DNA from: a virus
Strand: one strand, 5' to 3'
IMG/VR virus record: IMGVR_UViG_3300012642_000011
Coordinates: 64,001-128,000 of that record
Length of the DNA: 64,000 bases
This document shows positions 92 to 54,912 of this stretch, piece after piece; the first letter of the stretch is position 1; every line of letters starts with the position of its first letter. The notes beneath the pieces are model-generated. The model was not told the DNA's origin and made no database searches. It saw only the letters and a list, made by a program, of their open reading frames with translations. The translations under genes were made by a program, and so were the position numbers.

Positions 92-634
92 ATGAATGAA
101 TTCGTATTGACCTATTTGGTGCATTTTATCCCGCTATTTCTTGCTTTCGTATTATTGATAGTGACAAAGTTGGATATGGTTAGATTCATCTTCCTGATGA
201 TTTTTCTGACTGGTTTGAAGATTGTTGCTTCTTACTTCCTTTTGGGGACAATTCTCATATTCTCTCCGCTTATTGTTCTTGCCGTGTCATTGGCCGCACT
301 GTTCTTAATGGCAGGTCTGTTTGGGCAGAAAGCAGGGGCTGAGGATTACAAAGTGTTCCTTGTCATCATGTCTATGTTCCCATGGTATATTGGATTCTGG
401 CCGTCTGCAATGTTTGTTGTCTTGCTCATTGCTTTCATAGGAATTGCTACATATAGAAGTTTTTCCAAAGCAAAGAAAGAATGGGGAGTCACCGGAGGAA
501 CTCCTGCAAGTATCATGTTAGAGGTAGGAGAAGACAAGTGGAATAAGATGATTGGTGGGATTCACTTCATTTCCCCTGCGATGTTAGCAGCAATGGTGAC
601 AGCAGTGACCACTATTATTACTACAATGCTGTAA
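92..634 (+). CDS. polytopic membrane protein (about 5 TM), hypothetical
   Basis: GGAGG RBS 8 nt upstream of ATG; 180 aa with repeated hydrophobic helices; no recognisable catalytic motif. Confidence 0.5.
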   Translation: MNEFVLTYLVHFIPLFLAFVLLIVTKLDMVRFIFLMIFLTGLKIVASYFLLGTILIFSPLIVLAVSLAALFLMAGLFGQKAGAEDYKVFLVIMSMFPWYIGFWPSAMFVVLLIAFIGIATYRSFSKAKKEWGVTGGTPASIMLEVGEDKWNKMIGGIHFISPAMLAAMVTAVTTIITTML

Positions 635-703
635 AATAGATCAATTTTTTCGATATACATATTACGATACCATTGGCAACTCTGATCAGGAAAGTGACAA
701 TTC

Positions 704-1738: not shown

Positions 1739-3933
1739 TGAAAAAGCAAACACGAAAGGTCAACATGTTGGCATTGTCCGTCATTGCTGGCGGAACTGCT
1801 CTAGCAACGGCTGCTCCTGCTGTTGCTCAGGGTATTAATTTCGGTATCTGGGGAAATGATGGCGGATCAAGTACAGAAAACTTGAGTTCTGATTCTGTCA
1901 ACTGGTTCTCCGTATCTGCTAGAAATGGAAATACTGCTTGGGAAAACTTCCGAAAGTTCAGTGGTCTTGAGCCAAAGTATCTTGATGGTGAACTTAATGA
2001 GTTGAAAAACTTTGATAGAGAAGTCTGCGAAAAATCAAATACTATTTGGTACACGGTAAATAATAATAATGGAAGTTATTATTGGGTAAACACTATCAAT
2101 GGTACAGATAAGAGAACTATCTTGACTAAGGATGGTAAACTTGCCAGCACTGCTGACCACAAGGCAATTGGTGTCAATGGAACAGTATTGAACCCTGCTT
2201 TGACATATGGAGTCAAACCAACTCAGAAACAGATTGATGCCATGATCAAGGAGTATGGTACGGCTAAGTTGAACTCCCAGCCATGGACGCTTGTCTGCTC
2301 TGGCTCTCTTGTTGGTGCCCAGCCTCAGGGAAATAAGTGGACAGAGTACAAAGATAAAGATGGTAAGGCCACAAGAGACAGGAATGATGCTCTTGAAAAG
2401 ACAAGGGCTACAGGAAAGGTGAAAAGCTGGACCAATCCTATCAATGTGAACTTGATTGCAAAGCCAGATTTTGACCCAGGAAAAATCGCTTTGCAGAGCC
2501 AGTCAAAAGCAAATGTAACTCAGTTTGGAAACCTGTGGAAACAGGCTCAAGCAGAAGATCTTAATGGAAAATCCATTGAAGATGTAAATACATTGGTTGA
2601 AAGCGCTATGTCTAAAGACAAGGCCGCTTCTTACGAGATGGACTTAAATGACCAAAACAAGGAGGCTATTGCTGAAGGTGGAGTTATGTCCATTAATCAG
2701 TTCAATCAGCCAGGAACAATTACTGTTCGAGAAACTGAGACAGTGATTGAGAAGAGAACATGTGAAAAGAAGTATGAATTGAAAAATGAAGAATGGGTAC
2801 CAAGCACAACCTGTAGTGGATGGGGTGAAGAGAAAGTAGGGGTTGGCTCCACTGTCAGCACTACAAATACAACACAGGAGAACGTAGGTTTCTGGCAGAT
2901 CCTTGTTGTTCAGTGTAATCCTGAAGAATTTAACAAGGTCAAGAGTACTCTGGAAAATGCTGTTCAGAAAAATGGTGAACAGAAAAATGAAGTACTTTCT
3001 TCTGAGATAATTAATCAGGGAACAGGAACTGCTGGCGTTATCAAGACTATTATGTATAATGATACCACTCAGAAGAAACTTGGAAATCCAAGTCAGACTG
3101 ATGGAGTATTGCGTAGAACTGCACAAAATGGTTTCTATGATAAAGAATGTGGTCTTCAGTGCTATGCTCCACCTACATCAAGGGTAAGTGGTGGCGATGA
3201 TGGAAGGATTCAACCCAACGAACTTCCTGCTTATTCTCCAGGCAAGGATGGTGGAACTGGTGTGAAGATTTCTGATGATAGTAAGTTTGATGGAAAGAAT
3301 TTGGCAATCTTCAGAGATAACGATCCAAAAAGAACGATTACGATTAACCTTTGGAGACCTGAGATTGCTCCCAAGGCTACACCAAAGACAACAACAGTCT
3401 TCAAAGATCCCAACGGCACACCTGGTGCTGATGGTTCTGCAGGAGAATTTGTCATGACCGATAGTAAAAAGAACTCTGTTTTTGGATCTGATTCCGTAGC
3501 AGAGCAAAAGGGTTGGGATAAAGCGACATTCAAATCCCCCAATGTTTCCGTTCTTGATGGATCTCACAATGTGTTCAATGTAAGAGCAAATTGGCCTTCA
3601 GAAAAGGGTAATCCTCAAGTATTGAATGCTGCATGGGAATATGATGTGACAGGTAAAGCGGATATTCCAACTACGGTGGGAGTATCTAAGAATGTTTCTA
3701 CACCTGTCATGAAAAACGTTGGCACAGTGGAAGCACCTATTGAGGGTAGATGCTTTGCTATGTTTAACTCTAACGCTGAGGATCTTGGTAGTGAGTACTT
3801 GAATGCAAACACAGGAAGTGGAACTTCAACTGGTTTCAATAATCCGTTTGCTTATAAAACTGAAGGTGATGAAAGAATTTACAATAACCCTTACAACATT
3901 GTCATTGACTTTGTGAGGGCAACAGCAGAGTGA
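1738..3933 (+). CDS. secreted protein with cleavable signal peptide (731 aa), function unknown
   Basis: start overlaps upstream stop (ATGA); signal peptide MKKQTRKVNMLALSVIAGGTALATAAPAVAQG; large soluble domain with no recognised motif. Confidence 0.55.
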   Translation: MKKQTRKVNMLALSVIAGGTALATAAPAVAQGINFGIWGNDGGSSTENLSSDSVNWFSVSARNGNTAWENFRKFSGLEPKYLDGELNELKNFDREVCEKSNTIWYTVNNNNGSYYWVNTINGTDKRTILTKDGKLASTADHKAIGVNGTVLNPALTYGVKPTQKQIDAMIKEYGTAKLNSQPWTLVCSGSLVGAQPQGNKWTEYKDKDGKATRDRNDALEKTRATGKVKSWTNPINVNLIAKPDFDPGKIALQSQSKANVTQFGNLWKQAQAEDLNGKSIEDVNTLVESAMSKDKAASYEMDLNDQNKEAIAEGGVMSINQFNQPGTITVRETETVIEKRTCEKKYELKNEEWVPSTTCSGWGEEKVGVGSTVSTTNTTQENVGFWQILVVQCNPEEFNKVKSTLENAVQKNGEQKNEVLSSEIINQGTGTAGVIKTIMYNDTTQKKLGNPSQTDGVLRRTAQNGFYDKECGLQCYAPPTSRVSGGDDGRIQPNELPAYSPGKDGGTGVKISDDSKFDGKNLAIFRDNDPKRTITINLWRPEIAPKATPKTTTVFKDPNGTPGADGSAGEFVMTDSKKNSVFGSDSVAEQKGWDKATFKSPNVSVLDGSHNVFNVRANWPSEKGNPQVLNAAWEYDVTGKADIPTTVGVSKNVSTPVMKNVGTVEAPIEGRCFAMFNSNAEDLGSEYLNANTGSGTSTGFNNPFAYKTEGDERIYNNPYNIVIDFVRATAE

Positions 3934-3950
3934 TCTGATGTTCTCTGATA

Positions 3951-3990
3951 AAATGGGCTGGGTGTTAAACATCCGGCCCATTTGTCTTTG
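3951..3990 (+). terminator. putative intrinsic terminator
   Basis: hairpin AATGGGCTGG...CCGGCCCATT followed by TTTGTCTTTG. Confidence 0.4.
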
Positions 3991-4062
3991 GGTTGAAATT
4001 TTGGTATGATTGTTACAGAATGATCGATATAGCTATAGATCTGAAGGAATCGAGAGGACAAC

Positions 4063-5769
4063 ATGGCGTCACCAGAGCAGATGAATGACAACCATCCCGA
4101 TAACAAGGCTGCATCAGGACAGAAAAGGACAAGAAAGAAGTATCCTATTTCTGATACTGCTGTAGCAGGCAGTCTTGTGGCCCTTGCTGCTGCAGGCGCG
4201 TTGGCAATCGGCGGCAGTGTTGTCATGAATGTTAACAATTACAACAGCATTGTTTCTCCTGTGAAGAAGGAATCTCCTTATATTGAGGTTTCTCAAGTAA
4301 GTTCCATTTCAAAGGATTGGGCTAGATCACTTGCTAATCAGAGGCCATCTGTCATACCCAAGGATGATAAGTGGAATGTTCAGGATAATTCCTCCCCTCA
4401 GCATCCTATTGATCCCTCTATATGTTCTGAGATGAAGGAAGTTCCTGCCACTGTGACTTCAACGTTTAAAGCGGGCAGTGATTCCATGAGCGTTCATGTG
4501 CAGGCATATGGTGCCGGTCAGGCTGCAGATCAGTTCTACGCTTATAAGAATATGCTTGAATCGTGCTCCAATGTCAAGGAAGTCAAGACCAGTAATGGTA
4601 AGGCTATTATTTTTGACGATGGGTTCCTCATCACAATGGGTGATGGTATGGTAGGTGGCTTTGGGTTCAAGGACAGCAAGGTAAGAGACGGTGCTGTAAA
4701 GTTCTATGAAGAGAAGATGTTCTCTACTTTGAAGGATACTCAGTGTCGTGATCTTAGCGTGGTTCAGGGAGCAAGTTCGCGTTCTCCGTTCTATGGAGAG
4801 GACAAGTATAAGGGTCTCTTTGATAAGGCTAGGATGTCTACAAGCGTTCCTGTGAATGATGTTCCTAAGCCCAAGGAAGTCAAGTTGACATCGATTAAGG
4901 ATAAGGATATTTCTCAGCCTGAGTCTCCTATCCCTTCAAGTTATCCAAAGATGCCTGATAAGGAAGTGAAGAAGCCTGAGGTTCCTGCTGCTATTCCTGT
5001 CCAGAAGGCAGATGACTTTGATCAGTACGCTTCCTTTGAGATTCCTGATGACAATGGTCCCGGTTGTGGTTGGGAGTGGAGTGCTCAGCACGCTTTGAAT
5101 TATGATCGTCCTGCCCTCTCTCAGAAGGCTGATGCTGAGAAGCAAAAGGTTCAGTCTGAAGTTGATCGTACTGCACAGAAGTATGTAGATGATCAGAAGG
5201 CGTGGAGAGATAAGATTGAGCAGTTAACACCTGCTATTAATTCATGGAATACATATTCTACTAAGGTCAACAATGTTCACGATAAGTGGAATTATCTGAA
5301 TACTGAGCGCGCTAAGATTGAAGGCGCGTGGAATGAGTATATTTCCAGATACGAGGACTGGTTCACTTTTGATGACAGGCAGGCGGCAGCATCTGATCGC
5401 TATGACGCCGCATTGAAGAAGTGTGTTGATCAGCAGGATAAGGTTTCAGAGTGGGAGGAAAAGTGGGGCGAGAAGTATGCTCAGCAGGATGCTATCATTA
5501 ATTCTGCCACTGTGGAAAAGGAAATCGAGGAAGATGGGGAGACAAGGAAAGAGAGAGTCTTTGATCCTGATAAGTTGAGTGATGAACAGAAGAAGATCAT
5601 TGCTGAGGACATTCCTGACAGGCCAGAGGACTGCACAGAACTTCCTGAGAAGCCAAGTATCCTCACACAGTCTCGTCCAAAGGAGCCTAAGGCACCTAGC
5701 ATTCCAAGCGATGTGACAATTCCTGAATCTTGGAGAAGTGTGGATGATGTAATCAAAGAAAATCAGTGA
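4063..5769 (+). CDS. membrane-anchored hypothetical protein (568 aa)
   Basis: single TM (AVAGSLVALAAAGALAIGGSVVM) after a basic N-terminus; Lys/Glu-rich C-terminal coiled region. Confidence 0.5.
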   Translation: MASPEQMNDNHPDNKAASGQKRTRKKYPISDTAVAGSLVALAAAGALAIGGSVVMNVNNYNSIVSPVKKESPYIEVSQVSSISKDWARSLANQRPSVIPKDDKWNVQDNSSPQHPIDPSICSEMKEVPATVTSTFKAGSDSMSVHVQAYGAGQAADQFYAYKNMLESCSNVKEVKTSNGKAIIFDDGFLITMGDGMVGGFGFKDSKVRDGAVKFYEEKMFSTLKDTQCRDLSVVQGASSRSPFYGEDKYKGLFDKARMSTSVPVNDVPKPKEVKLTSIKDKDISQPESPIPSSYPKMPDKEVKKPEVPAAIPVQKADDFDQYASFEIPDDNGPGCGWEWSAQHALNYDRPALSQKADAEKQKVQSEVDRTAQKYVDDQKAWRDKIEQLTPAINSWNTYSTKVNNVHDKWNYLNTERAKIEGAWNEYISRYEDWFTFDDRQAAASDRYDAALKKCVDQQDKVSEWEEKWGEKYAQQDAIINSATVEKEIEEDGETRKERVFDPDKLSDEQKKIIAEDIPDRPEDCTELPEKPSILTQSRPKEPKAPSIPSDVTIPESWRSVDDVIKENQ

Positions 5770-5782
5770 TCATTGTTTGCTG

Positions 5783-5820
5783 AATTGGGGAAGGTGAACT
5801 GCCTTCCCCAATTCTCTTTG
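5783..5820 (+). terminator. intrinsic terminator
   Basis: perfect 12-bp stem AATTGGGGAAGG/CCTTCCCCAATT with 7-nt loop, then CTCTTTG. Confidence 0.7.
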
Positions 5821-5874
5821 TAAATATAAGTTTTTAAAGTTTCTTTTCAAGGATGAGTTTTATAGAAGTGTGTT

Positions 5875-5883
5875 TGTTAGAAT
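5875..5883 (+). promoter_or_regulatory. extended -10 promoter-like motif TGTTAGAAT
   Basis: TGnTAGAAT about 100 nt upstream of the SSB-like gene; the same motif recurs at 10870, 17396, 38553, 60318 and as TGATACAAT at 25661. Confidence 0.4.
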
Positions 5884-5981
5884 ATAAATAGTCCACACCA
5901 CAGGGGTGAGGAGGCAGACTTCGTAAACTGAAGCCCGCATAAATAGCCGAATAGGCGAGTAACAAAAAGGATGGTATAATC

Positions 5982-6548
5982 ATGAAAGATCCAGTTCACG
6001 TTGAGGGAAGCGTTATCAAGATCGAGGAAATGCGTAAGGTTGGAAAGGACAACCAGAGCGTTCTTAACTTCCTCGTAGTTGAAGAGTATAGGGAGAAGGT
6101 TGGAGAGAATGAGTGGAATGTTAAAGCCACTAAGTTCTACAACTGTACAGCATGGAGAAGTCGTGCTGAGGCTCTTGAAAAGACACTTGTTCCAGGCATG
6201 AAGGTATACTTCTCATTGAGCAGAGATTTGGAGCCTAAGAAGGATAAGAACGGCGAGGTTATCCTTGATTCCAATGACCGTCCTGAGACTGTTTACGAGC
6301 GATACACAGTTCTTAATGGTGGACCTGATATCATGTGGGATGCTATGCAGTACTCTGATGAGGAGAAGCGCACTAAGGCAGAAGAGAGTCTTGAGAAGAT
6401 GCTGAAGAAGAGGGGCGATAGCGGTTCTAGTTCTAGAAGTTCTTCATCTTCCTCAACGTCATCTTCAAAGAAGACGACTTCTGCTAAGAAGTCAGAACCT
6501 GTCGATGATATTGACGATTTTGATGATGATGAATTCAGTGACTTCTGA
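5982..6548 (+). CDS. ssb: single-stranded DNA-binding protein-like (OB fold with acidic C-terminal tail)
   Basis: OB-fold-like core (ATKFYNCTAWRSRAEALEKTLVPGMKVYFSLSRDL resembles SSB L45-strand region); Ser-rich linker; C-terminal DDIDDFDDDEFSDF tail like the SSB DDDIPF interaction tail. Confidence 0.5.
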   Translation: MKDPVHVEGSVIKIEEMRKVGKDNQSVLNFLVVEEYREKVGENEWNVKATKFYNCTAWRSRAEALEKTLVPGMKVYFSLSRDLEPKKDKNGEVILDSNDRPETVYERYTVLNGGPDIMWDAMQYSDEEKRTKAEESLEKMLKKRGDSGSSSRSSSSSSTSSSKKTTSAKKSEPVDDIDDFDDDEFSDF

Positions 6549-6582
6549 GATTAAAAAGTAATTTCATTCTGATCACTCCCTT

Positions 6583-6616
6583 GAGGGTCTGCCAATAAGG
6601 CAGGCCCTCTTTCAAT
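6583..6616 (+). terminator. intrinsic terminator
   Basis: GAGGGTCTGCC aataa GGCAGGCCCTC hairpin followed by TTTCAATG. Confidence 0.6.
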
Positions 6617-6739
6617 GTGTATATTTATACGTCTGATATAAAAGATAGTGAGTTATCATCAGGGCACAACTGTGTTCGTGATCATTCTCGGGATCATATT
6701 GATGATCCATTATACTGCAGACTTTAAAAAGAGGACGTT

Positions 6740-7465
6740 ATGAGTTCAACATATGATAATGATGCCATAGAGGAAGAAGGTAAAGACAACGAGAGCGTAT
6801 TCTTCTTGGATGGAGATGAAAAGATTGAATATGATGTCAGTGTGTACAACAAGAACTATATTGAGCAGAACAGATTGACACATCAAAAATGGTTCAAGAT
6901 CACAGTTGCTATCGTGGCATCATTGGCGGCAGTGTCCATTCTGACATATCTGGTGCTTCTTTCTTTTCTTTCTCCGGTATCGTTGAATAATAAATCATCA
7001 AATGATAAAAGCTTTTCCATGCCTATGTTTGAGGCTATGGGGAAACCTGATCCTGTTAAATATGGTCATGTTAACATCAAAGTATCCAAAAATACTATTT
7101 CAGCATCAGACGGTAACAGTCTTGCTCTCAAGAACGCTTCTCTTACATCTGCTCAAAGCGATACATGCCAAATTGCAGATCCCCAAAGTTTCTGTTTAGT
7201 TGCACAAGGGGAATTTAAGGGAGAAAAGATTGATGTATACTATTTCAAGGACATTGCCGGTTCTCTTTTCTTCAATTCTCCTTCTGCATTCAAGCAGGTT
7301 GAGGGTGTTAAGGGAAGAATCGTGGCTTTAAGTGATATTTCGTTTAAAGGTGAAAACAGAACTGTGGTAGCAACGGGAGAAAAGAATTCATCTGGATTCC
7401 TGATCCTTACACCAAAGAACAGTAGTGTAGATTTTGTCAAGGATTTGGCTTCATCATTGAATTGA
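6740..7465 (+). CDS. single-pass membrane protein, hypothetical
   Basis: 241 aa with a TM around residues 50-75 (WFKITVAIVASLAAVSILTYLVLLSFL). Confidence 0.45.
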   Translation: MSSTYDNDAIEEEGKDNESVFFLDGDEKIEYDVSVYNKNYIEQNRLTHQKWFKITVAIVASLAAVSILTYLVLLSFLSPVSLNNKSSNDKSFSMPMFEAMGKPDPVKYGHVNIKVSKNTISASDGNSLALKNASLTSAQSDTCQIADPQSFCLVAQGEFKGEKIDVYYFKDIAGSLFFNSPSAFKQVEGVKGRIVALSDISFKGENRTVVATGEKNSSGFLILTPKNSSVDFVKDLASSLN

Positions 7466-7480
7466 TTATAAGGAGTAAAA

Positions 7481-8491
7481 ATGACGAATGCAATTATAGT
7501 GATATGCGTATACTTGTTTGTATACCCTATTCTTTTTAGATTGATGGCTGTATTGCATACTGAAATGAGAGTGAAGCCTGCTATGGAGAAGGCAAGGAAG
7601 AATAAGGCTAAAAAGATCCCTAAACCTATCTGGTCTAATAAATGGGGACCAAGGCTTTCCTTTGCCTTCAAAGATAAGAGAGTAGCCACTTTTGGTAAGT
7701 CAACTTTAGGATCACTTCAAAATAGACAGATCGCTTTAATAATCTACATACTAGGAATGATCCTGATGGTTTACTCAACATTCTCAAGCGAAATTATGAA
7801 TCAAGCTCTTGGATACGTAGCAGCATTCTGTGTGTTTCTCATAGCGGTATTCTACGCTATGAATCGTGCCAAGAGCGTAGTTGATGTTAGGAGCAATAAG
7901 ATTGGGAAGATGTTTGAAATTGCTGCTGCCAAATTGAGCATCTCAAGAGAGTATGCTGAAAACCCCAATGCTGTTGTTGAAGTAAAAGAATGGAGAGATC
8001 TTGTTTACCCCCAAGAAGTAAAGTTTTATATCCCACCTACACTTGACCAAAATGCTGAAGATGGGTTCTTGAGACAATTCAATCAAGTGTTTGGATCAGA
8101 AACCACATTTGTGACGCACAATACTCAAGATAATGGTAATCCTGGTTGGGATGGAGAGAATGGAGAGTACACTATCAAGGCTGTGCCACCATTGCCTATG
8201 AAAGCACCATGGAGTGAGAAGTATGTGCTGGATGAAAGAATTGCATGGAGCTTTTTCCCTATTGCTCTTGGCGTTGAAAATGGTGTAGAACTCGTTGATC
8301 CAGAGACAGGGGAAAAGGAGAATGTTCTTGGATTTGATCTTGCAGGAGAGCAAGTCTCCCTTGCCAAGAAACATGGTGTTAAATTAGGTGGAGAAATCGT
8401 TGTAGCACCCATGGTACTCATTGCAGGTGGTACTGGTGGTGGCAAGGCAGAGGACATCAACACCAAAGTCTTGAGATATGTCGAAGATTGA
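7481..8491 (+). CDS. membrane protein with Gly-rich C-terminus, hypothetical
   Basis: RBS AAGGAG; two N-terminal TM segments plus two more; C-terminal AGGTGGGKAED (P-loop-like but not a canonical Walker A). Confidence 0.45.
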   Translation: MTNAIIVICVYLFVYPILFRLMAVLHTEMRVKPAMEKARKNKAKKIPKPIWSNKWGPRLSFAFKDKRVATFGKSTLGSLQNRQIALIIYILGMILMVYSTFSSEIMNQALGYVAAFCVFLIAVFYAMNRAKSVVDVRSNKIGKMFEIAAAKLSISREYAENPNAVVEVKEWRDLVYPQEVKFYIPPTLDQNAEDGFLRQFNQVFGSETTFVTHNTQDNGNPGWDGENGEYTIKAVPPLPMKAPWSEKYVLDERIAWSFFPIALGVENGVELVDPETGEKENVLGFDLAGEQVSLAKKHGVKLGGEIVVAPMVLIAGGTGGGKAEDINTKVLRYVED

Positions 8492-10075: not shown

Positions 10076-10777
10076 ATGGACCAAAAAACTTATCAGGGAT
10101 CTTCCTTGAACGGCTATCAGATGAGTCAGGGATATCCTGACACTGAAGTTGACAATAATCAGAAATTCTATCGTAGTGTCCTGACATGGACAGCGGCCAC
10201 TTTGGTGATCTGTGGTCTTTCTGCCCTTTTCATTGGCCCACTCGTCCCACCTGCAATGGTGCTCCCCATCTCTATTGCTGTGCTTGTAGGCTTGCTGGTT
10301 GCCTCATTTGTAAGGAACCTTTTATACAAATTTGCTGATTTCTTCGCTATCGTGGTTCCTGCTGCACTCGGTCCTGTGATCTATGCTGTAGTAGCGCAGT
10401 ATACTAGCGCAGGTATGGGTTCAGTCGTCATCAATGCTCTTCTTGGAACTGCTATGATCTTCTGCATTATGGCTGCTATTGGATGGACCAGTAAGAAGAA
10501 CTTCATGTCCATGGGCAAGTATCTCTTTGCCATCGTACTTGGATTGATCGCTTTCTCCTTGCTGAATATCTTCCTTCTGAAGTCAGCAATGATCTCCTTT
10601 GTCATCTCCATTGGAGTCTTGATCATCTTTTCCCTTTACATCATATATGATTTGCAGGCTGTGAAGACAAGGGCATTTGGAGACAAGGCATCTATCTACG
10701 CTTTGAACATATTCCTTGACATTTACAACATCTTCATCAGTCTACTGCAAATCTTGGGGTTCCTTTCCAAAGACTGA
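10076..10777 (+). CDS. BI-1/YccA (TMBIM) family 7-TM membrane protein
   Basis: 233 aa with 7 predicted TM; N-terminal FYRSVLTWTAATLVICGLSALF and C-terminal DIYNIFISLLQILGF typical of the Bax-inhibitor-1/YccA family. Confidence 0.55.
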   Translation: MDQKTYQGSSLNGYQMSQGYPDTEVDNNQKFYRSVLTWTAATLVICGLSALFIGPLVPPAMVLPISIAVLVGLLVASFVRNLLYKFADFFAIVVPAALGPVIYAVVAQYTSAGMGSVVINALLGTAMIFCIMAAIGWTSKKNFMSMGKYLFAIVLGLIAFSLLNIFLLKSAMISFVISIGVLIIFSLYIIYDLQAVKTRAFGDKASIYALNIFLDIYNIFISLLQILGFLSKD

Positions 10778-14723: not shown

Positions 14724-14820
14724 AAACAGCCTTTAGTTAAAATAGACTTGTGTCGGCAGAGTCCGAAGAGATAAGAAATACTTTAACGTATAGATGCCAG
14801 AAATAAAAGGAGAATGTCAA

Positions 14821-15957: not shown

Positions 15958-15980
15958 TGATCTTCTAACATCCAATTGAT

Positions 15981-16020
15981 AACTCTCCCAGATATAACTC
16001 TGGGAGAGTTATTTATTTTA
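15981..16020 (+). terminator. intrinsic terminator after recA
   Basis: AACTCTCCCAGA/TCTGGGAGAGTT hairpin followed by ATTTATTTTA. Confidence 0.7.
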
Positions 16021-16029
16021 AGGAAGACA

Positions 16030-20155: not shown

Positions 20156-22645
20156 GTGAGTTTTTTCAAGGACAGGAAAGTAGAGGAAGAGGATACTAAC
20201 CTCTCAGGATTGCTCGGGGAGAAGGGTCTTCCCTCTGATGAGTATGATCCCAATTCCGTGGCTAACAAGCGTGTTCCTAAGAAGACATGGCTGACTCTTG
20301 GCGCAGCAGGTCTTGTTTTTGGAACTGCCGCACTTGGAGCAGGATCTGTCGTGATGGCACCTGCCTTGGCTATTGCTGCTCCGAGCGTTGAGAGTTATAA
20401 GAATCTTCCTGAAAGTCTCCCTGATGCAACCATTGCTCAGAGAAGTGTGATGTATGACATCAATGGTGAGCCTTTCGCTGAAATCTATTCTCAGGATCGA
20501 GTGGTACTTGATTCTCTCGACAAGGTGAGTGACAACGTAAAGAATGCTTTGATCTCCACTGAGGACAAGAGATTCTATGAGCACAGTGGTTTTGACCCTG
20601 TGGGAACTGCACGTGCTGCCATTAGTGGTTCTGGTGGTGGATCTGGTATTACTCAGCAGTTGATCAAGAACTATCAGTTCTATGACATGGCTGGAAAAAA
20701 CAAGGAAAAGGCTATTGAGGCAACTTTAAGTCGTAAGATTCAGGAGTTGAAGTTTTCTCTTGATTATGAGAAGAACCACTCAAAGGATGAGATTCTTCTC
20801 AACTACTTGAACCTTGTTTCATTCGGCTCTCCCTCTACTTACTCCATTGAAGGAGCATCCAAGTACTTCTTTGGAAAGTCTGCCAAGGATCTTGATGTGG
20901 CTGAAGCCGCAGTCCTTGTAGGTACTGTGCAGAATCCAGTTAGCCTAAATCTCAACAAGGTCAACAAGGATGTTTTCAACGAGTACTCTAAGATCTATGT
21001 AGAAAAGTCTTCTAAGCAGGCAAGAATGTATCTCGACAAGGAGATCGAGAAGGGAAACATTGATGAGGCTCAGAAGAAGACAACAATCAAGATTAAAGAA
21101 CGTCAGAATGAGGTCTTGTCAAGAATGGCCGATGAGGGCCATATTGACAAGGATAAGGTTGAGGAGTTTTATGCGACTCCGTTGAACCTTGTCTACAAGA
21201 AGTCTTCTACAGGAAACTGTACCTCATCCGAGTATGAGTCTTATTGTGAGCGTGTCCTTAAAGAATTGAGCAATTCACCTCGTCTTGGAGAGACTGAGGA
21301 AGAGCGTGCTATTGTCATTGATAAGGGCGGATTGCATATTCATACTTATCTTGATCCTAAGGTTCAGGACAAGGTAACCAATCGACTGAAGAGTGACTTT
21401 GGTTATGAGAATCGTGTCGTTGCCCCTACTGCTATCGTCCAGCCCGGAACAGGTGGAATCCTTGCCGCTGATGTGAACAGAGAATACGGAGATGGTGACG
21501 GAAAGACCACTATCGATGTTCCTTCTGTCAGGACAGGTACAGGTTCTGCTTACAAGATGTTCACACTTGCTGCTGCTCTTGAAAATGGCATGTCTCCACA
21601 GCAGTTGGAATTCTCCACACCATGTCCTCTTTATTTCAGTGACTTCGATGAGCCTAGTGGCGGATTCAGTAACAGCCTTGGTTGTAGCAAACTTCAGTCA
21701 CAGAATTTGAACTTTGAGCAGGCTACTGCTTACTCATCAAACACATGGTTCACTGCCCTTGCTGAGAAGATTGCTTATCCCAATGGAGAGTTTGTTGGTC
21801 TTGAGCCTGTCTTTAAAATGACAGATTCACTCGGTCTGCATACTCCTGAGAACGTCACTAACAGGTCAATGTCCTATGTCCTTGGTGCTACAGGAAACTC
21901 TACTATTGATATGGCTGCTGCCTATGCCGCCTTCGCTAATGAAGGTGTGTACTGTCCTCCTACATCAGTGAAGAGTTATGAATACTCTGATGGAACTTCA
22001 CCCGTTGTTCCTGAGAGTTATAACCCTGAAGACACTAGTTGCCGTGCGGCTATGAGTCCTAGAACAGCGTCCACTGTTCTTCGTGCTATGCGAGCAAACA
22101 CTGTACCTGGTCATGTTGACAATGCCTTCGGTTTGATGGGTAACGTTCCCGGTTATGATGCTGTAGGAAAGTCTGGTACTAACCAGAACTACAACTACAC
22201 ATGGGGTCAGGTTTCCAAGAATTATTCTCTCTTCATCAACATCACTGACATGGATAAGATGACTCGTGGTGTGAATGGAAACTTCTGGTTCCGTGGTGGC
22301 CGTGCAGGTACAAGCACTGCTGTGATTGCTGGATCATCTGTGATGAAGGATGTACTCAAGGGAACTACACCTGTTCCTCTTGACTTCAACAACACCAGCA
22401 CTGATCGTGTCAATGTCCCTGTTGAGCGAAAGGATTTCTTTACAGTTCCTTCCGTAGTGGGTATGTCTCCTGAGCAGGCATTGGATACGTTGAGGTCAAC
22501 TGGCGTCAAGTCCAATGTAAGCAAGGAGAAGATTGCTTCTCAGAATGGTCTCCCATCCGGTGTGATCGGTGAACAGTCAATTCCTGCTGGGGAGAAACTT
22601 GCTGTGGGAACGCAGAAGGAGATTGTTCTCAAGATGGTCAATTGA
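20156..22645 (+). CDS. class A penicillin-binding protein (GT51 transglycosylase + transpeptidase + C-terminal PASTA)
   Basis: GT51 motifs EDKRFYEHSGFD, GSGITQQL, RKIQELKFSLDYEKNHSKDEILLNYLN; transpeptidase SAYK (SxxK), SSN (SxN), KSG (KTG variant); C-terminal PASTA (FFTVPSVVGMSPEQALDTLRSTGV); N-terminal TM; GTG start with AGGAAG RBS. Confidence 0.8.
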   Translation: MSFFKDRKVEEEDTNLSGLLGEKGLPSDEYDPNSVANKRVPKKTWLTLGAAGLVFGTAALGAGSVVMAPALAIAAPSVESYKNLPESLPDATIAQRSVMYDINGEPFAEIYSQDRVVLDSLDKVSDNVKNALISTEDKRFYEHSGFDPVGTARAAISGSGGGSGITQQLIKNYQFYDMAGKNKEKAIEATLSRKIQELKFSLDYEKNHSKDEILLNYLNLVSFGSPSTYSIEGASKYFFGKSAKDLDVAEAAVLVGTVQNPVSLNLNKVNKDVFNEYSKIYVEKSSKQARMYLDKEIEKGNIDEAQKKTTIKIKERQNEVLSRMADEGHIDKDKVEEFYATPLNLVYKKSSTGNCTSSEYESYCERVLKELSNSPRLGETEEERAIVIDKGGLHIHTYLDPKVQDKVTNRLKSDFGYENRVVAPTAIVQPGTGGILAADVNREYGDGDGKTTIDVPSVRTGTGSAYKMFTLAAALENGMSPQQLEFSTPCPLYFSDFDEPSGGFSNSLGCSKLQSQNLNFEQATAYSSNTWFTALAEKIAYPNGEFVGLEPVFKMTDSLGLHTPENVTNRSMSYVLGATGNSTIDMAAAYAAFANEGVYCPPTSVKSYEYSDGTSPVVPESYNPEDTSCRAAMSPRTASTVLRAMRANTVPGHVDNAFGLMGNVPGYDAVGKSGTNQNYNYTWGQVSKNYSLFINITDMDKMTRGVNGNFWFRGGRAGTSTAVIAGSSVMKDVLKGTTPVPLDFNNTSTDRVNVPVERKDFFTVPSVVGMSPEQALDTLRSTGVKSNVSKEKIASQNGLPSGVIGEQSIPAGEKLAVGTQKEIVLKMVN

Positions 22646-24005: not shown

Positions 24006-24671
24006 ATGTTGTTTCTTAGTTTATCAGTTATTTTTTCTCTTCTCCTTTTCTTCATCAGTTTTAAGACTCAAGAAAAATGGATGAAGAGTGAAAAAATGCA
24101 CCCATTTGATTGGAAGAAACTCAACCTTGTTGCACTTAGTGTCACATTACTTGCAAATTTTGGCTTGTCCTTTTTTATAGCAGATCACATTAATAATTCT
24201 ACATCATTGAGTGCTTTGCTTGCTGCTGTAACCTCTTCTCTTGTGTACACATCAGTACAAACAGTCACTGACTTCAAGGTGAGAAGAGCATACAGATGGA
24301 CACTTATCATGGGTTATGTTTCTGTGATTGCTTGCGCCTTATGGGATTACGCGGCAAACGATATGATGTCCTCATTCATGTTCTACCTGCTTGTTCTTAT
24401 TATTGTAGGACTGGGAATCCTCTTCAAAGGTATTGGAATGTCTGATACCAGAGCAATGATCCTTGTCTGTGCTTCCATTGTTCCCATTGCAGGTGTGCAA
24501 GGTTTGAATTACTACCTCTACTTATTCCTCTTTTTCCTCATTGGTTATACATTGATTTTTAAAATCAGGAATAAAGAGGTAAAGATATTGACTACTAAAA
24601 TTTCATTCCCCATGGTGCCCATTTTTATCTGGCCTGCATTGATCATAGTATTAAAAACAGTTTTGCTATGA
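24006..24671 (+). CDS. polytopic membrane protein (weak resemblance to A24 prepilin-peptidase-like aspartyl proteases)
   Basis: 6-7 TM; VTDFKVRRAYRW and GIGMSDTRAM loosely resemble the two Asp-containing motifs of the CpaA/TadV family; speculative. Confidence 0.4.
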   Translation: MLFLSLSVIFSLLLFFISFKTQEKWMKSEKMHPFDWKKLNLVALSVTLLANFGLSFFIADHINNSTSLSALLAAVTSSLVYTSVQTVTDFKVRRAYRWTLIMGYVSVIACALWDYAANDMMSSFMFYLLVLIIVGLGILFKGIGMSDTRAMILVCASIVPIAGVQGLNYYLYLFLFFLIGYTLIFKIRNKEVKILTTKISFPMVPIFIWPALIIVLKTVLL

Positions 24672-29165: not shown

Positions 29166-31934
29166 ATGAGAATAGTTGAAGTTGACTTGTGGGAGGGAGA
29201 GGAGATTGTACCTCTTCTCCCTCCTGAGGGCGTTGATGAACTTTCAGAAGATAATGAGACTTTAGAAGAAGAGAAGTTTAATCTATTTAGTGAAGACAAT
29301 AAGCCAGAATGGGCATACACTAAAACTTATAAAAGAGTCATCATTCATGTTGACAACAACAAGATCAAATTCTATTCCATTGAAGATCTTTCTACAGATG
29401 AAGATCTTAATAAACTAGAGGGTTTCTCCAAAACTTCCAAAAACATCTGGGAAGCTAACAGGTCATCTGTCAATGCATTTATTCTTCGCCATATTATCAA
29501 GTCTATTCATGGTGGATTGTCCTCCAAAGAAGACGTGAAAGCATTGGCTACACTTGCTGACAACGCTGTTGATCCGCATGTGAGAATTAGTGATGATAAG
29601 ACCACTATTGAAATCTCTGCTCCACAAGTATGGGTGTATACTGATGTGTTGAGAAAACTTAGTGCCTACTACAGAAGAACAGGCATTTATTCCCTTCAAA
29701 TAGGAAAACTTCTTGATTTCCAATCTCTTTGTGAGAACATGGATGAAAGGTTTCCCCCATTCCGTGTAGATGATGACGTGTACGGACTAGTCAATGACCC
29801 AATTGAAGGATTTGATGGCACACTGGATTCATTGAGGTTCGTTGACATTGAAGAACTCAATGTCATCAGAGCAAACAAACAAAGCAATGACCAGTTGAGG
29901 AAATCAGAGAAAACTCTCGCTGAGAAGATGAGGGAATCAGGATATGCCACCCTGCATGACCTTATTATGACTATTCCACGAAAGTATATTTTCAAGAATG
30001 AATCACAGGACTTAAAAGACCTTGAAGAAGGAGAAACAGCGACAATCGTTGGAAAGATTGATTCCTCAGGAGAATTCGGCAACCCAAGAACAAGAGCATC
30101 AGGAATCTATTTCATGATCAAAACTGAAGGTGGTAACAACCTCCGAGTCAGTTTCTTCAATCAAAGATGGTTGCTTACACGTTTCAAGACGGGTGATGAA
30201 GTCATTGTTACAGGAAAATTCGGTTACTTCAATTTAAAGCCCCAAATCAGTGGAATCTCCATTGATCACATGGAAGATGCTGAACTTCTTCCTGTTGTCC
30301 CTGTGTACAAACAGCAACCCTCCAAGGGAATCACTACCAAACTGATTCTTTCTGCTATCAGAGAGTTGATAGCAAGAAGCGGTGCTGATATCTCCATGCC
30401 TGAATACTTTGAACCAGATAATAAGATGCCTACAGGAGAAGCGTTCAATGAACTGCACTTCCCATCTTCCCCAGAGCACCATGAAGCATGCATGGACACA
30501 CTTGCCTTCTATGAGATGGTCTATATGCAACTCGTCCTTCAAGAATCAAGAAGGAATCAGGTTTCTCATCAAGGAATCAAGATGGAAGAATCCGATTCAG
30601 CATTACAACAGAAAGCAATTGAGTCTCTTCCATTTACGTTGACCAATGCTCAGTCTCAAGCACTAGAGAAAATTAATCATTCTCTAGCAGGAAGTGAACC
30701 ATCATCAACCCTCGTCAACGCTGACGTAGGTTCAGGAAAGTCTATCATTGCTTTCCTGTCATGCCTGAGAGCAGCAGAATCGGGCTACCAGTCTGCTATT
30801 GTTGGCCCAACAGATGTTCTTGCCCGACAGTTGTATGCAGGTCTTGAGAGGGCTGTTGCGCCCCTTGGAGACGATGTTAGCATTGCTCTGATCACAGGAA
30901 GCATGAAAGTAAAAGAGAAGAATGCTATTTACAAGAAGGTGGCGGATGGAGAGATCGACATTGTGGTAGGAACACTGTCACTCGTCAAAACAAAAATGAA
31001 ATACAATAATCTCGGATTGATTGTGATTGACGAACAACAGAAATTCTCCGCAGAAGATCGAAGCAGACTTCTTTCCAGCAGAGAAGATGAGCGTGTTCCA
31101 GATCTCATCCAGCAGACAGCAACGCCTATTCCACGCTCTATTGCTCAGAGTTTCTTTGGCGATGTAGATATGATTATTCTTGATGAGAAGCCACCTGGCA
31201 GAATCCCCATTGTCACTGAATGGATACAAGAATCTCCTACTCAAATTATCAATGAGAAGGATCACCCCATGTGGCAGGACATCATAGATGAAGCAAAAAC
31301 AGGGAACCAGACCTTCATCATTGCCCCAATGGTGAAGGAATCAGATAAGATCGATGCAGCATCAGTGGAAAAAGCATATGAATCCATTAACAATGGAGTG
31401 CTGTCCTCTATTAATGTAGGATACGTCCATGGAAAAATGAAACCAGATGATCAAATGGAAGCAATGACCAAGTTCCGCAACAAGGAATATGATGTCCTTG
31501 TCGCATCCACTGTTGTTGAAGTTGGTGTAGACATCCCTGATGCCACTAGGGTCATTGTACTCTCTGCAGACAGATTGGGATCAGCCTCATTGCACCAAAT
31601 TAGAGGTCGTGTAGGAAGAAACCAAAAGCCATCCAAATGCTATCTCGTCTCCATTGGAAACACTAAGAATAGCCAAAAGAGACTACAGAACATTGTGGAT
31701 CACGCAGATGGATTCGATGTTGCTCAGGCAGACATGGAAAACCGTGGAACAGGAACTGTCTTCGGAACAGAGCAATCAGGAAACAGCGAAATGCTCTTTG
31801 CTGACCTTCTGACACATAAACACTTGATTGATGAAACAGTGGAATCTGCAAAGAGGATATTGAATTCAGAGAACAGAGAACAAGCACTTAAAGATGCATC
31901 TCAACTATTCATTTCAAAGGGGAGACTACTGTGA
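29166..31934 (+). CDS. RecG-like SF2 DNA helicase with about 450-aa N-terminal extension
   Basis: TxAQ motif LPFTLTNAQSQALEKI; Walker A VNADVGSGKSIIAF; Walker B VIDEQQKFS; helicase C region; GGAGAG RBS. Confidence 0.65.
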   Translation: MRIVEVDLWEGEEIVPLLPPEGVDELSEDNETLEEEKFNLFSEDNKPEWAYTKTYKRVIIHVDNNKIKFYSIEDLSTDEDLNKLEGFSKTSKNIWEANRSSVNAFILRHIIKSIHGGLSSKEDVKALATLADNAVDPHVRISDDKTTIEISAPQVWVYTDVLRKLSAYYRRTGIYSLQIGKLLDFQSLCENMDERFPPFRVDDDVYGLVNDPIEGFDGTLDSLRFVDIEELNVIRANKQSNDQLRKSEKTLAEKMRESGYATLHDLIMTIPRKYIFKNESQDLKDLEEGETATIVGKIDSSGEFGNPRTRASGIYFMIKTEGGNNLRVSFFNQRWLLTRFKTGDEVIVTGKFGYFNLKPQISGISIDHMEDAELLPVVPVYKQQPSKGITTKLILSAIRELIARSGADISMPEYFEPDNKMPTGEAFNELHFPSSPEHHEACMDTLAFYEMVYMQLVLQESRRNQVSHQGIKMEESDSALQQKAIESLPFTLTNAQSQALEKINHSLAGSEPSSTLVNADVGSGKSIIAFLSCLRAAESGYQSAIVGPTDVLARQLYAGLERAVAPLGDDVSIALITGSMKVKEKNAIYKKVADGEIDIVVGTLSLVKTKMKYNNLGLIVIDEQQKFSAEDRSRLLSSREDERVPDLIQQTATPIPRSIAQSFFGDVDMIILDEKPPGRIPIVTEWIQESPTQIINEKDHPMWQDIIDEAKTGNQTFIIAPMVKESDKIDAASVEKAYESINNGVLSSINVGYVHGKMKPDDQMEAMTKFRNKEYDVLVASTVVEVGVDIPDATRVIVLSADRLGSASLHQIRGRVGRNQKPSKCYLVSIGNTKNSQKRLQNIVDHADGFDVAQADMENRGTGTVFGTEQSGNSEMLFADLLTHKHLIDETVESAKRILNSENREQALKDASQLFISKGRLL

Positions 31935-32548
31935 GCACAGCAGCAGAACAAACAACAAAGAGAAACAAGTTTGCTTGGCTTGACAAAGATAAACCTTTCA
32001 TATCTTATCTTGTCATGCTAAGAAAACAGTACAACACGAATTTCAAGCAGTTCTTCACCGTAACAGGAATCTCTTTAGTCGTCTTCATTGTCATCGCTGC
32101 ACTCATTGATATCTTTACTCCCTTTACGCAATTGTTCATGGTATTGAGATCCCTCATGCTCATTCCCGGTTCTCTTCTCTTCTTCAGTCTGTTTTATAAT
32201 GTCAGCATCTTCTTAAGCAATGTCATGAAAGCAAGAGACCCACAATGGATTCCCTTTAGGTTCAGATTGTCCTATGCATGGCGTGTACGTATTGCAATCG
32301 TGGCTGCTGTGTTCCTTATCGTCTTGATCTATGGTGGCGAGTTTGACGCAGCCTACACGGCGAGATCTGCACTATATGCATCCCTCTTCCTTTCCCTCCT
32401 AGCATTCATCAGAATGACAAGCAAAGAAGCGGATTTGAGGAAGTATGGAATACCTGACCCACGAGACATTGAGAACAAGAGAAAAACATATGAAATGAGA
32501 AGTTCTCTTTCTGACAGAGGAACAAGAAGGAAAAACAAGAAACGATAA
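31931..32548 (+). CDS. membrane protein, hypothetical
   Basis: GTG start with AAAGGGGAG RBS; 4 TM; basic C-terminus. Confidence 0.45.
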   Translation: MSTAAEQTTKRNKFAWLDKDKPFISYLVMLRKQYNTNFKQFFTVTGISLVVFIVIAALIDIFTPFTQLFMVLRSLMLIPGSLLFFSLFYNVSIFLSNVMKARDPQWIPFRFRLSYAWRVRIAIVAAVFLIVLIYGGEFDAAYTARSALYASLFLSLLAFIRMTSKEADLRKYGIPDPRDIENKRKTYEMRSSLSDRGTRRKNKKR

Positions 32549-32667: not shown

Positions 32668-33231
32668 TTGAAACACATGAAGAAATACACCAAGCCATTG
32701 GTCTTTGGAGCAAGTATTGCAATGGTCGTTGCAGCATCTACTACCTCTGCCTACGCTCTGATGAATGAGATAGACAACAATGACGCTTCTACCACAAGCG
32801 GAACTGTAGGCTTTAAGAGCATGCATGATAAGTTCACAGAGGCATCCTACATTAAGAACTCTCCCAAGGAAGTATTTGTCAAGACAGCATTGGATAAAGA
32901 ACAAGTTCATCTTACATCTGATGGCAGTAGGGTTGCTCTCAGCGGTGAGCAACTGGTCTTCCCCAATAGTTATGAGACTAAAGAAGAGGGAGATTATGAT
33001 TTCGCCCTTGCCACGCTTGACAGCGTAGAAGACTTCATCAAGAAAGATGACGTTGACGTAGAGTACATTGGAGAGAAGACTATCCATGATGTCAAGGTCA
33101 AAGAATACTACATTGACTCACATGGACAAGGATCAACAGGAACAATGTACAAAGATGACAAGGATATCATCAGAGGATACACCTCAAAATCTGGTGAAGT
33201 TGATATCTTCATCACTGAATACAACCAGTGA
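32668..33231 (+). CDS. secreted protein with signal peptide, hypothetical
   Basis: MKHMKKYTKPLVFGASIAMVVAASTTSAYA signal peptide; preceded by a TTGCTATCATAAG promoter-like element also seen at 20111. Confidence 0.45.
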   Translation: MKHMKKYTKPLVFGASIAMVVAASTTSAYALMNEIDNNDASTTSGTVGFKSMHDKFTEASYIKNSPKEVFVKTALDKEQVHLTSDGSRVALSGEQLVFPNSYETKEEGDYDFALATLDSVEDFIKKDDVDVEYIGEKTIHDVKVKEYYIDSHGQGSTGTMYKDDKDIIRGYTSKSGEVDIFITEYNQ

Positions 33232-54908: not shown

Positions 54909-54912
54909 TAAC

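Follow-up and report, generated by a model that had tools for sequence, protein, structure and literature searches.

Giant elements that carry cell envelope genes have been described from human samples. Inocles, circular oral elements of 245-395 kb and 24-32% GC, have been linked to Streptococcus salivarius (Kiguchi et al., Nat Commun 2025, PMC12340149). They are plasmid-like and intracellular, are defined by InoC (PF13814, Replic_Relax) together with VirB4/VirD4, and carry sortase A and LPXTG proteins; envelope genes account for about 20%, most open reading frames (ORFs) have no assigned function, and gene orientation is replichore-like (PMC12340149). A bifunctional transglycosylase/transpeptidase with a transmembrane (TM) segment is conserved in all Inocle taxa, an S26 signal peptidase, a RecD-like helicase, DNA polymerase III (pol III), insertion sequence (IS) elements and tRNAs are encoded as well, and transcription of the Inocle kit was detected in saliva (PMC12340149). 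A set of jumbo and megaphages, with circular genomes >300 kb and linear contigs >500 kb, was reported from Human Microbiome Project (HMP) tongue and plaque samples on the basis of a major capsid protein (MCP) criterion (bioRxiv 10.1101/2020.07.06.186817). Here, we analyzed a 64-kb stretch of DNA (the window), positions 64,001 to 128,000 of IMG/VR virus record IMGVR_UViG_3300012642_000011, that encodes a class A penicillin-binding protein (PBP), a PASTA-only membrane protein, a type I (S26) signal peptidase, a secreted G5-domain hydrolase, a BI-1/YccA-family membrane protein and a cysteine-free DsbA-fold protein (pseudo-DsbA). On balance, these six genes probably make up a functional envelope module, passed on vertically, of giant extrachromosomal replicons that range in size from at least 330 kb to ~730 kb and reside in human-associated Gram-positive bacteria.

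Mobile elements normally degrade the cell wall rather than build it. The envelope kit that an earlier note had proposed for this DNA does exist, with its catalytic residues intact, and is unusual for a mobile element. Its central component is the bifunctional PBP (20156..22645, plus strand), which consists of an N-terminal cytoplasmic tail, a hydrophobic membrane anchor at approximately amino acids (aa) 44-75, a GT51 domain, a transpeptidase domain and a C-terminal PASTA domain. All three domains, already read from the sequence alone, matched Pfam profiles far above threshold (Transgly, 5.9e-43, aa 104-273; Transpeptidase, 4.8e-20, aa 427-694; PASTA, 3.8e-10, aa 763-820), and all motifs are intact. 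The five GT51 motifs are legible in the translation (EDKRFYEHSG, GGSGITQQ, RKIQE, KDEILLNYLN and RQNEVL), including both catalytic Glu residues (E136 and E197), as are the transpeptidase motifs SAYK (S464-A-Y-K467), SSN (S527-S-N529) and KSG (K672-S-G674). In an alignment of 149 PBPs of this family that span 39-97% identity, E136, D137, E197, S464, K467, S527, N529, K672 and G674 are invariant (149/149) and position 673 varies only between Ser and Thr, a pattern of purifying conservation. Polymerization of lipid II and acylation by beta-lactams are the predicted activities of this protein.

We examined the window together with 10 kb upstream (L112) and 22 kb downstream (L115 and L127), ~96 kb in total, as well as the loci of ~40 relatives. 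Homologs of the PBP with the identical three-domain architecture (>120, 42-97% identity) were found in databases on metagenomic contigs, and in more than 30 relatives, with 35-61% GC and contigs of 42-728 kb, the gene lies in conserved synteny. The PBP of the window is carried by a 332,269-bp contig (ENA ERZ27289831 k141_11150) and a near-identical copy by a 437,576-bp JGI contig, and some of the PBP-bearing contigs of the lineage are very large, measuring 727,572 (ENA ERZ27247443 k141_1824502), 681,645, 670,635, 542,517, 436,884/436,870 and 385,639 bp. The gene order DUF2201-RecA-AAA5-DnaB-two small ORFs-PBP-four ORFs-ClpB-like-ORF-RecG is kept in L001, L002 and L003 (~50% identity) and in most of the IMG/VR loci, 26 syntenic PBP loci (39-51% identity) on contigs of 42-420 kb being present in that database; synteny is retained over a GC range of 0.345-0.615. 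A second module, with the order 137-aa ORF-S26-pol III delta-like-PIF1-PASTA-(G5+NlpC/P60)-SpoU-Metallophos-pseudoDsbA-(G5-LT)-140-aa ORF-SNF2, in which LT denotes lytic transglycosylase, is present in L160, a relative with 35% GC, and in L164-L166, IMG/VR contigs that carry the PBP 23-26 kb upstream. Contigs that carry the PBP repeatedly carry the S26, PASTA and pseudo-DsbA genes too, and in the most divergent clade (60% GC), the S26, delta and PASTA genes directly follow PBP-RecG.

Outside the lineage, the PBP resembles the PonA2-type PBPs of actinobacteria and those of Arthrobacter and Streptomyces megaplasmids in its GT51, transpeptidase and PASTA architecture, but the identity is only ~30%, and the PBPs of the elements form a coherent group (39-97% internal identity) within a replication module. 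The best plasmid-borne PBPs, from these megaplasmids, are at most 33% identical, that of Arthrobacter plasmid NZ_CP099467 (30.6% over aa 59-827, PASTA included) among them. In a pattern-seeded scan of 185,579 species genomes (GTDB representatives), the best matches were 25-30% identical, bar one 5-kb contig binned with Actinomyces; the best match in GenBank phages was ~27% identical, and no GenBank phage was hit when the PBP and 25 kb of the window were searched by megablast. In codon usage, the kit genes do not stand out from the rest of the window, and they are compositionally native to the replicon. Synteny and sequence comparison therefore indicate that the PBP belongs to the syntenic core of this lineage and has been inherited vertically. 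Given the deep synteny, the invariant catalytic residues, the 25-33% identity to the nearest cellular and plasmid PBPs and the native composition, the kit is not a recent pickup from a host, but lineage-wide core rather than cargo.

Pfam-type profile searches reproduced most of the domain calls made from the sequence alone, at the same positions and well above chance. The PASTA-only protein (51649..52791, plus strand) is a type II membrane protein with an acidic cytoplasmic tail, a TM segment at aa 45-63, PASTA repeats and a Ser/Pro-rich tail. It had been described as a membrane protein with three PASTA domains and no catalytic domain; the membrane location and the lack of a catalytic domain stand, and the repeats number four, the Pfam PASTA match (4.7e-40, 135.8 bits) falling into four stretches of which the first is degenerate. 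No Pkinase match or catalytic domain was detected in the protein, just 44 residues of which precede the TM segment. The closest cellular matches are the PASTA regions of Streptomyces and Arthrobacter Stk1 kinases (28-35%), and all of the cellular homologs carry a PF00069/PF07714 kinase domain. With its TM segment and tandem PASTA repeats, the protein is like the ectodomain of Stk1/PknB, but unlike Stk1/PknB, it has no kinase domain, so that it appears to be a kinase-less PknB/Stk1-like ectodomain. Because this domain is missing and the cytoplasmic part is only a 44-aa acidic tail, the protein could bind ligand but would not be expected to signal by phosphorylation. Orthologs are present in L022, L023, L031, L160 and L164-L166.

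In the type I signal peptidase (48334..49086, plus strand), the N-terminal tail is long and acidic and precedes a TM anchor at aa 72-90; the protein matched Peptidase_S26 at 1.1e-21 (77.9 bits against a cut-off of 22.9). It contains the boxes SGSSMEPS, with the Ser nucleophile, VKRVVGLP, with the Lys general base, and GDN..SLDS, and aligns with Staphylococcus aureus SpsB (4wvh) over both catalytic boxes (SSMEPS/VKRVVGLP vs GESMDPT/VKRVIGVP), which bears out its initial identification as a complete S26 signal peptidase I. The check for mutated catalytic residues thus found the S26 boxes present and the PBP residues intact. The enzyme shares the Ser-Lys dyad boxes and the N-terminal TM anchor with SpsB/LepB, and differs from these in being encoded by a mobile element and in its 70-aa acidic N-terminal extension. 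Orthologs with 31-39% identity were found in every subclade examined. Plausible Sec substrates for this peptidase are encoded in the same window. Candidates include a 731-aa secreted protein (1738..3933, plus strand; signal peptide ending in APAVA, followed by QG), for which no Pfam, PHROG or PDB match was found, and a small secreted protein (32677..33231, plus strand; signal peptide MKKYTKPLVFGASIAMVVAASTTSAYA, followed by LM, from an internal Met). Inspection confirmed Sec signal peptides with AxA sites in the three proteins for which they had been proposed, those at 1738, at 32668 (from the internal Met at 32677) and at 55866.

The last of these is the G5 protein (55866..57134, plus strand), in which the signal peptide, ending in SAAFA and followed by QE from the true start at 55866, precedes a G5 domain (Pfam, 4.1e-12), a coiled-coil, a Pro/Thr linker and a C-terminal SLT-like LT domain. 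The C-terminal domain matched the PHROG annotation 'transglycosylase' at 5.7e-18 and contains the SLT-type motif RESGWN...SSARGIPQ, which supports an LT-like assignment, although the Pfam SLT match is sub-threshold (0.057). No PF06737 match and no DUF348 repeats were found in the protein, and no PDB match for its C-terminal domain. Of its previous description as a secreted G5 and SceD/IsaA-like transglycosylase, secretion, the G5 domain, the start and the transglycosylase-like character are retained; a specific link to SceD/IsaA is conjectural. RpfB, RipA and PonA1 form a wall-remodeling partnership in mycobacteria. As in this partnership and with staphylococcal SceD/IsaA, a G5-tethered glycan hydrolase, and in relatives an NlpC/P60 endopeptidase, is encoded alongside a class A PBP; unlike in RpfB and SceD/IsaA, the catalytic domain is SLT-like, not demonstrably of the Rpf or SceD type, and DUF348 repeats are missing. 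Orthologs of the G5-LT are present in L160 and L164, and the secreted G5-hydrolase varies among relatives, being an LT, an NlpC/P60 protein or both, with at least one in the window, in L160 and in each of L164-L166.

The polytopic membrane protein at 10076..10777 (plus strand) is a full-length match to Bax1-I (6.4e-33; 114.7 bits against a cut-off of 34.1; profile positions 1-207 of 207), with six TM segments by hydropathy, in agreement with its assignment to the BI-1/YccA family. Pairing of this protein with an FtsH was considered and rejected, as the AAA protein at 46202 is Cdc48/VCP-like, not FtsH-like.

The sixth kit protein, the pseudo-DsbA (54877..55824, plus strand; gene callers start at ~54895), combines an RR-containing N-terminal anchor with a Thioredoxin_4 fold in which CxxC is replaced by SPSS. 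The window protein itself has no direct Pfam match even at E<=5. An exhaustive search yielded 97 representative homologs, and Thioredoxin_4 (PF13462) was matched by 11 of 45 family members. Comparison by hhalign with the CxxC-bearing paralog of the lineage (96.7% probability, E 3.8e-10) places S161-P-S-S164 in register with C-P-G-C. In the 45-sequence alignment, the CxxC position corresponds to a conserved [ST]-Q-[RK]-S-R-D-F (consensus S-Q-R-S), and most members contain no Cys; orthologs with SxxS are present in L160 and L164-L166. Because CxxC is replaced family-wide and most members are cysteine-free, the pseudo-DsbA cannot be an oxidoreductase. The low-GC relatives also keep a genuine CPGC Thioredoxin_4 (DsbA/MdbA-like) membrane protein, encoded between the HNH and DUF2201 genes (L001, 49-900; L002, 711-1574), and the species represented by the window, which has no gene at that position, may keep only the cysteine-free paralog. 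Thus, by profile comparison, the pseudo-DsbA shares the fold of DsbA/MdbA-type Thioredoxin_4 proteins but differs from them in the family-wide replacement of CxxC by [ST]-Q-[RK]-S. These data point to a conserved pseudo-enzyme family, not a decayed gene: the 'dead DsbA' of the earlier note was correct as to the DsbA-like fold and the change from CxxC to SPSS, but the cysteine-free state is conserved and does not reflect decay.

The kit is larger than first described: two polytopic membrane proteins of giant size belong to it, as do other conserved membrane proteins; as judged by hydropathy and inspection for signal peptides, about one-third of the window ORFs encode membrane or secreted proteins. 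A plus-strand block of membrane-anchored or polytopic proteins (92..8491; ORFs at 92, 704, 4063, 6740 and 7481, by hydropathy), interrupted by the SSB gene, runs on upstream into two giant 7-TM paralogs of 1389 and 1105 aa (L112 297-7780), which are followed by a very acidic 401-aa protein, the three genes occupying L112 297-9392, 1-10 kb upstream of the window. Each of the giant paralogs has a signal or anchor sequence and ~7 TM segments; no Pfam, PHROG or PDB match was obtained for either, and a single-sequence scan with the 1389-aa protein retrieved no match. The same trio lies directly upstream of the PBP in L030. A conserved 6-TM protein (24006..24671, plus strand) is encoded two genes downstream of the PBP, with orthologs (24-31%) in the same position in relatives, and a conserved 3-TM protein (31931..32548, plus strand) directly follows RecG and is found in 14 relatives' loci. 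The 313-aa protein encoded at 24705-25646 (plus strand), with an acidic N-terminus and no family, is among the best-conserved proteins of the lineage, with 37-49% identity even in the most divergent clades. In L020, two ORFs without a window homolog (8126-9965) are inserted directly upstream of the PBP. A bulk Pfam scan gave RmlB-like (GDP_Man_Dehyd/Epimerase, 4.7e-31) and RmlA-like (NTP_transferase, 1.9e-13) matches that it does not assign to particular ORFs; these two ORFs are probably the source, and if so, further wall-polymer chemistry would be linked to the PBP.

The evidence points to actinobacterial rather than Firmicute affinities of the kit. A C-terminal PASTA domain on a class A PBP corresponds to the PonA2 architecture, the tethering of a glycan hydrolase through G5 is reminiscent of RpfB/RipA, and membrane-bound Thioredoxin_4 oxidoreductases resemble MdbA, all of which are actinobacterial themes. 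The nearest non-lineage matches of the PBP, over the PASTA domain too, are from Actinomycetota, and two fragments with lineage-type genes are binned with metagenome-assembled genomes (MAGs) of Actinomyces (a 50%-identical PBP) and Corynebacterium urealyticum (a 44%-identical DNA methyltransferase). The hosts are, we infer, most likely human-associated Gram-positive bacteria of the Actinomycetota. Recent acquisition from a Firmicute host, as envisaged in the earlier note, is contradicted by the lineage-wide synteny, the native composition and the Actinomycetota being the nearest relatives at ~25-33%.

From sequence, we infer how the encoded enzymes might act, what they might bind, how they could work together and what the element might gain. 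The membrane-anchored PBP would polymerize lipid II through its GT51 domain and cross-link glycan through its transpeptidase domain. Its PASTA domain and the kinase-less four-PASTA protein could bind un-crosslinked peptidoglycan or lipid II, and this binding might either place the synthase or compete with a host PknB-type wall sensor and blunt its signaling. The secreted G5-tethered glycan/peptide hydrolase, SLT-like here and NlpC/P60 or both in relatives, would open the existing wall for insertion of new material, and the element's own S26 signal peptidase is predicted to mature its many Sec-exported proteins. The BI-1/YccA protein and the cysteine-free DsbA-fold protein might be membrane/export quality-control and holdase factors. 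A stronger proposition, which we consider speculative and rather unlikely as a whole, is that this undescribed, widespread lineage of human-associated giant replicons (to ~0.73 Mb, 35-61% GC) has a self-sufficient wall-building and export core with which it makes a dedicated wall or septal structure or seizes control of wall growth in actinobacterial hosts. Such a self-sufficient core would comprise the PBP-PASTA protein, the PknB-ectodomain decoy, the G5 LT and/or NlpC/P60 protein, the signal peptidase, the DsbA-fold holdase and the two giant membrane proteins.

Several observations weigh against the reading that we prefer, a functional envelope module inherited within giant replicons of human-associated Gram-positive bacteria. 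Only ~96 kb was seen of a replicon that measures 332-437 kb or more. Assignment to a host phylum depends on 28-33% similarities and two MAG bin labels, which are possibly mis-binnings, and the GC content of 35-49% in several clades of the element is low for most Actinomycetota. The G5-LT is absent at its position in L165 and L166, and among the relatives' loci examined, conservation of BI-1 was not demonstrated beyond the species of the window. The PASTA-decoy, YccA and holdase roles are suggested by analogy only.

The nature of the replicon that carries the module is a separate question. In the earlier note, the element was taken to be a phage, whose kit would remodel or maintain the host envelope during a long infection and process secreted phage proteins. 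A huge (jumbo or mega) phage of this kind is a credible, tentatively held explanation, although the premise is unproven. The 26 syntenic relatives in IMG/VR are listed as viral, and several features are phage-typical: the T4-type RNA ligase together with ~20 tRNAs, the inteins, the HNH, DUF723 and LAGLIDADG homing endonucleases, and the ADP-ribosyltransferase. Relatives carry a PHA02142-type ligase, DUF3310 and a 'phage tail lysozyme' domain; the lineage is absent, at >33% identity, from the 185,579 species genomes and from PLSDB, bar the one 5-kb GTDB contig; and HMP oral contigs >300-500 kb have been called jumbo or megaphages on the MCP criterion (bioRxiv 10.1101/2020.07.06.186817). However, neither the ~96 kb nor the ~40 relatives' loci yielded a gene for a capsid, portal, terminase or tail protein, and bulk Pfam and PHROG searches with 38 and 69 unannotated ORFs of relatives revealed no convincing virion hallmark. 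The sole virion hints, phrog_2666 (2e-7), which probably represents FtsK-like ATPases, and a 'minor head protein' (1e-4), come from loci not assignable to the lineage. None of 24 family-less ORFs matched a PHROG of known function, GenBank phages hold no relative, and tblastn of the DnaB, VWA and DUF2201 proteins against phages gave distant relatives only, or none. As IMG/VR holds 42-77 kb fragments of this same module, its viral label may reflect replication-type markers.

The replicon might instead be a plasmid-like giant element of the Inocle kind, a possibility to which we attach about the same weight, whose kit would benefit the host through wall robustness, surface display, or stress or beta-lactam tolerance. 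Like Inocles, which were compared by their published description, the lineage consists of giant elements from human samples with mostly unannotated ORFs, a PBP and an S26 peptidase, a RecD-like helicase, pol III genes, IS elements, tRNAs and envelope proteins, and the window shows an Inocle-like pattern of one-strand genes, positive GC skew, an IS200/605 unit, a PIF1/RecD-like helicase and pol III beta- and delta-like genes. Unlike Inocles, the lineage has 35-61% GC (41.8% in the window vs 24-32%) and contigs of 332-728 kb (vs 245-395 kb), several of which reach 437-728 kb. Neither relaxase, VirB4/VirD4, InoC-type (PF13814) nor partition genes were found in the ~96 kb or in the relatives' loci, and no sortase Pfam match or C-terminal LPXTG sorting signal among the window ORFs, so that InoC, VirB4/VirD4, sortase A and LPXTG proteins, which mark Inocles, were not encountered in the part of this replicon seen, at most 30%. 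The PBP of the lineage differs in having a C-terminal PASTA domain, the kit adds the PASTA-only protein, pseudo-DsbA, G5-hydrolases and BI-1, and its affinities are actinobacterial rather than with Streptococcus. Because the Inocle-type kit matches but GC content, size, markers and taxonomic affinity differ, we regard the huge phage and the Inocle-like element as roughly equally likely.

It is very unlikely that the window derives from a small cellular genome, for example that of an uncultured reduced Gram-positive bacterium or a member of the Candidate Phyla Radiation (CPR), in which the kit would be ordinary housekeeping. The gene list has a cellular flavor (DnaB, SSB, RecA, RecG, pol III beta/delta, ribonucleotide reductase (RNR), ClpB-like, SpoU, PBP1, LepB and tRNAs), and the related contigs of 670-728 kb are in the range of small bacterial genomes. 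Nevertheless, ribosomal or translation genes were found neither in the ~96 kb nor in the relatives' loci, and the ~96 kb contains no rRNA, aminoacyl-tRNA synthetase, RNA polymerase or translation factor gene; together with the absence of the PBP family from the GTDB representatives, bar the one 5-kb contig, this answers the concern that the contig could be bacterial chromosome. The T4 RNA ligase, the loose tRNA array, the inteins and homing endonucleases, the ADP-ribosyltransferase, the family-less half of the ORFs and the same synteny across 35-61% GC also argue against a cellular origin. A CPR/Saccharibacteria genome, considered on account of the 700-kb contigs, was rejected in view of the GTDB result and the missing translation genes. 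Finally, although Arthrobacter, Bacillus and Streptomyces megaplasmids carry class A PBPs and a few phage records include such genes (e.g., mtgA of Microcystis phage MaAM05), the possibility that the envelope genes were captured from a host in recent times, as auxiliary-type cargo without a conserved role, is largely refuted, and to us the most improbable of all, in view of their deep syntenic lineage-wide distribution, invariant catalytic residues, <=33% identity to any cellular or plasmid PBP found and native composition.

That giant human-associated elements can carry a PBP together with a signal peptidase is already known from the Inocle report (PMC12340149). We sought a literature description of this specific lineage and found none; what appears to be new is the lineage itself, with its breadth, size and actinobacterial-type kit, and also the PASTA-only sensor mimic, the cysteine-free DsbA family, the alternative G5-hydrolases and the PBP-linked giant membrane proteins. 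A synthase, a leader peptidase and a wall-sensor mimic under purifying selection across replicons of 0.3-0.7 Mb suggest a life strategy that depends on control of host envelope growth and secretion. The Inocle report raised such a strategy for one Streptococcus-associated group, and the present lineage suggests its wider use, with different hosts, a fourfold range of divergence and extra components. Where human commensals harbor class A PBPs encoded by such elements, their tolerance of beta-lactams could be affected. Some pipelines label giant oral contigs 'jumbo phage' and others label them 'plasmid-like', on indecisive evidence. Should the present elements form virions, they would rank with the largest phages known, and would be the first phages to possess a conserved complex for peptidoglycan synthesis.

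With regard to its general organization, the window contains ~50 long ORFs, nearly all on the plus strand, at a GC content of ~42% (41.8%; 0.418), and GC skew is uniformly positive along this one-strand layout. Pfam annotation covered every major window ORF, and no family was assigned for approximately half of the ORFs. The overall picture is that of a replication, recombination and nucleotide-metabolism module with the envelope genes interspersed. The identified genes encode SSB, a T4-type RNA ligase (10923-12386), HNH, DUF2201/VWA, RecA, MoxR-like AAA_5, DnaB, pol III beta-like, ClpB-like ATPase, RecG, class Ib RNR, a DUF723 homing-type protein, an ADP-ribosyltransferase, IS200/605 TnpA/TnpB, Cdc48-like AAA, pol III delta-like, a PIF1/RecD-like helicase, SpoU, Metallophos, SNF2 and VWA proteins. 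The DUF2201 (metallopeptidase/VWA-like) and MoxR-like AAA_5 ATPase genes, a pair of the MoxR-VWA type, flank RecA (13128-17367, plus strand), an arrangement kept in all relatives; the DUF2201 protein matched phrog_1314 at 2e-40. The VWA-domain protein at 59556-60299 (plus strand) matched phrog_28389 at 2.7e-49, and among GenBank phages, only two unannotated human-faecal 'Bacteriophage sp.' contigs, with 31% identity.

Inteins and other mobile sequences are frequent in this region. The class Ib RNR large subunit (38718-43298, plus strand; 1526 aa) carries two insertions, a Hint_2 element (approximately aa 179-221) and a LAGLIDADG-containing intein (approximately aa 813-1193), and a DUF723 homing-type ORF (36674-38407) lies between nrdF and nrdE. 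DnaB is 491 aa long in the window vs 651-766 aa in relatives, which suggests inteins in the latter. An ADP-ribosyltransferase exoenzyme family gene (43492-44271, plus strand; PF03496, 8.5e-13) adjoins a complete IS200/IS605 unit (44379-46125), in which TnpA (Y1_Tnp) is encoded on the minus strand (44379-44780) and TnpB on the plus strand, starting at ATG 44833 after the Shine-Dalgarno sequence AAGGAGG. Several short-read assemblies end exactly at this unit; an exact-protein look-up for extra copies returned only the one locus.

The downstream flank (L115 and L127) contains ~20 tRNAs, homing-endonuclease-like genes and, ~16 kb past the 3' end of the window, a gene for a 904-aa core protein (L127 10001-12715) with an invariant FFANPPYGQ, the motif IV of N6-adenine DNA methyltransferases. 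Hundreds of orthologs share 41-53% identity with this protein, which has no Pfam match, and its profile retrieved only unrelated environmental IMG/VR viral contigs (22-33%). It had been considered as a virion protein, a candidate that was rejected given its identity as an NPPY N6-adenine methyltransferase. A 46%-identical NPPY methyltransferase lies ~4 kb from a type I-E CRISPR-Cas operon (Cas3, Cse1, Cse2, Cas7 and Cas5; L162 16697-22622; ENA ERZ28603807, JOJA21-1 scaffold_4, 59% GC), near genes for a crescentin-like coiled-coil protein and a 605-aa NlpC/P60 protein. Because the methyltransferase is all that L161-L163 have in common with confirmed lineage sequence, these loci were not used in describing the lineage; no GenBank phage match was found for the large proteins of L161.

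An Rfam scan of the window detected tRNAs only. Nine loosely spaced tRNAs are located at its 3' end, in an array (61892-63981) that continues in L115 (11554-17646) to ~20 tRNAs with a spacing of 50-300 nt, including duplicates (two Lys-CTT, two His-GTG and five Leu). One tRNA call in the array is odd, with a 2-nt anticodon.

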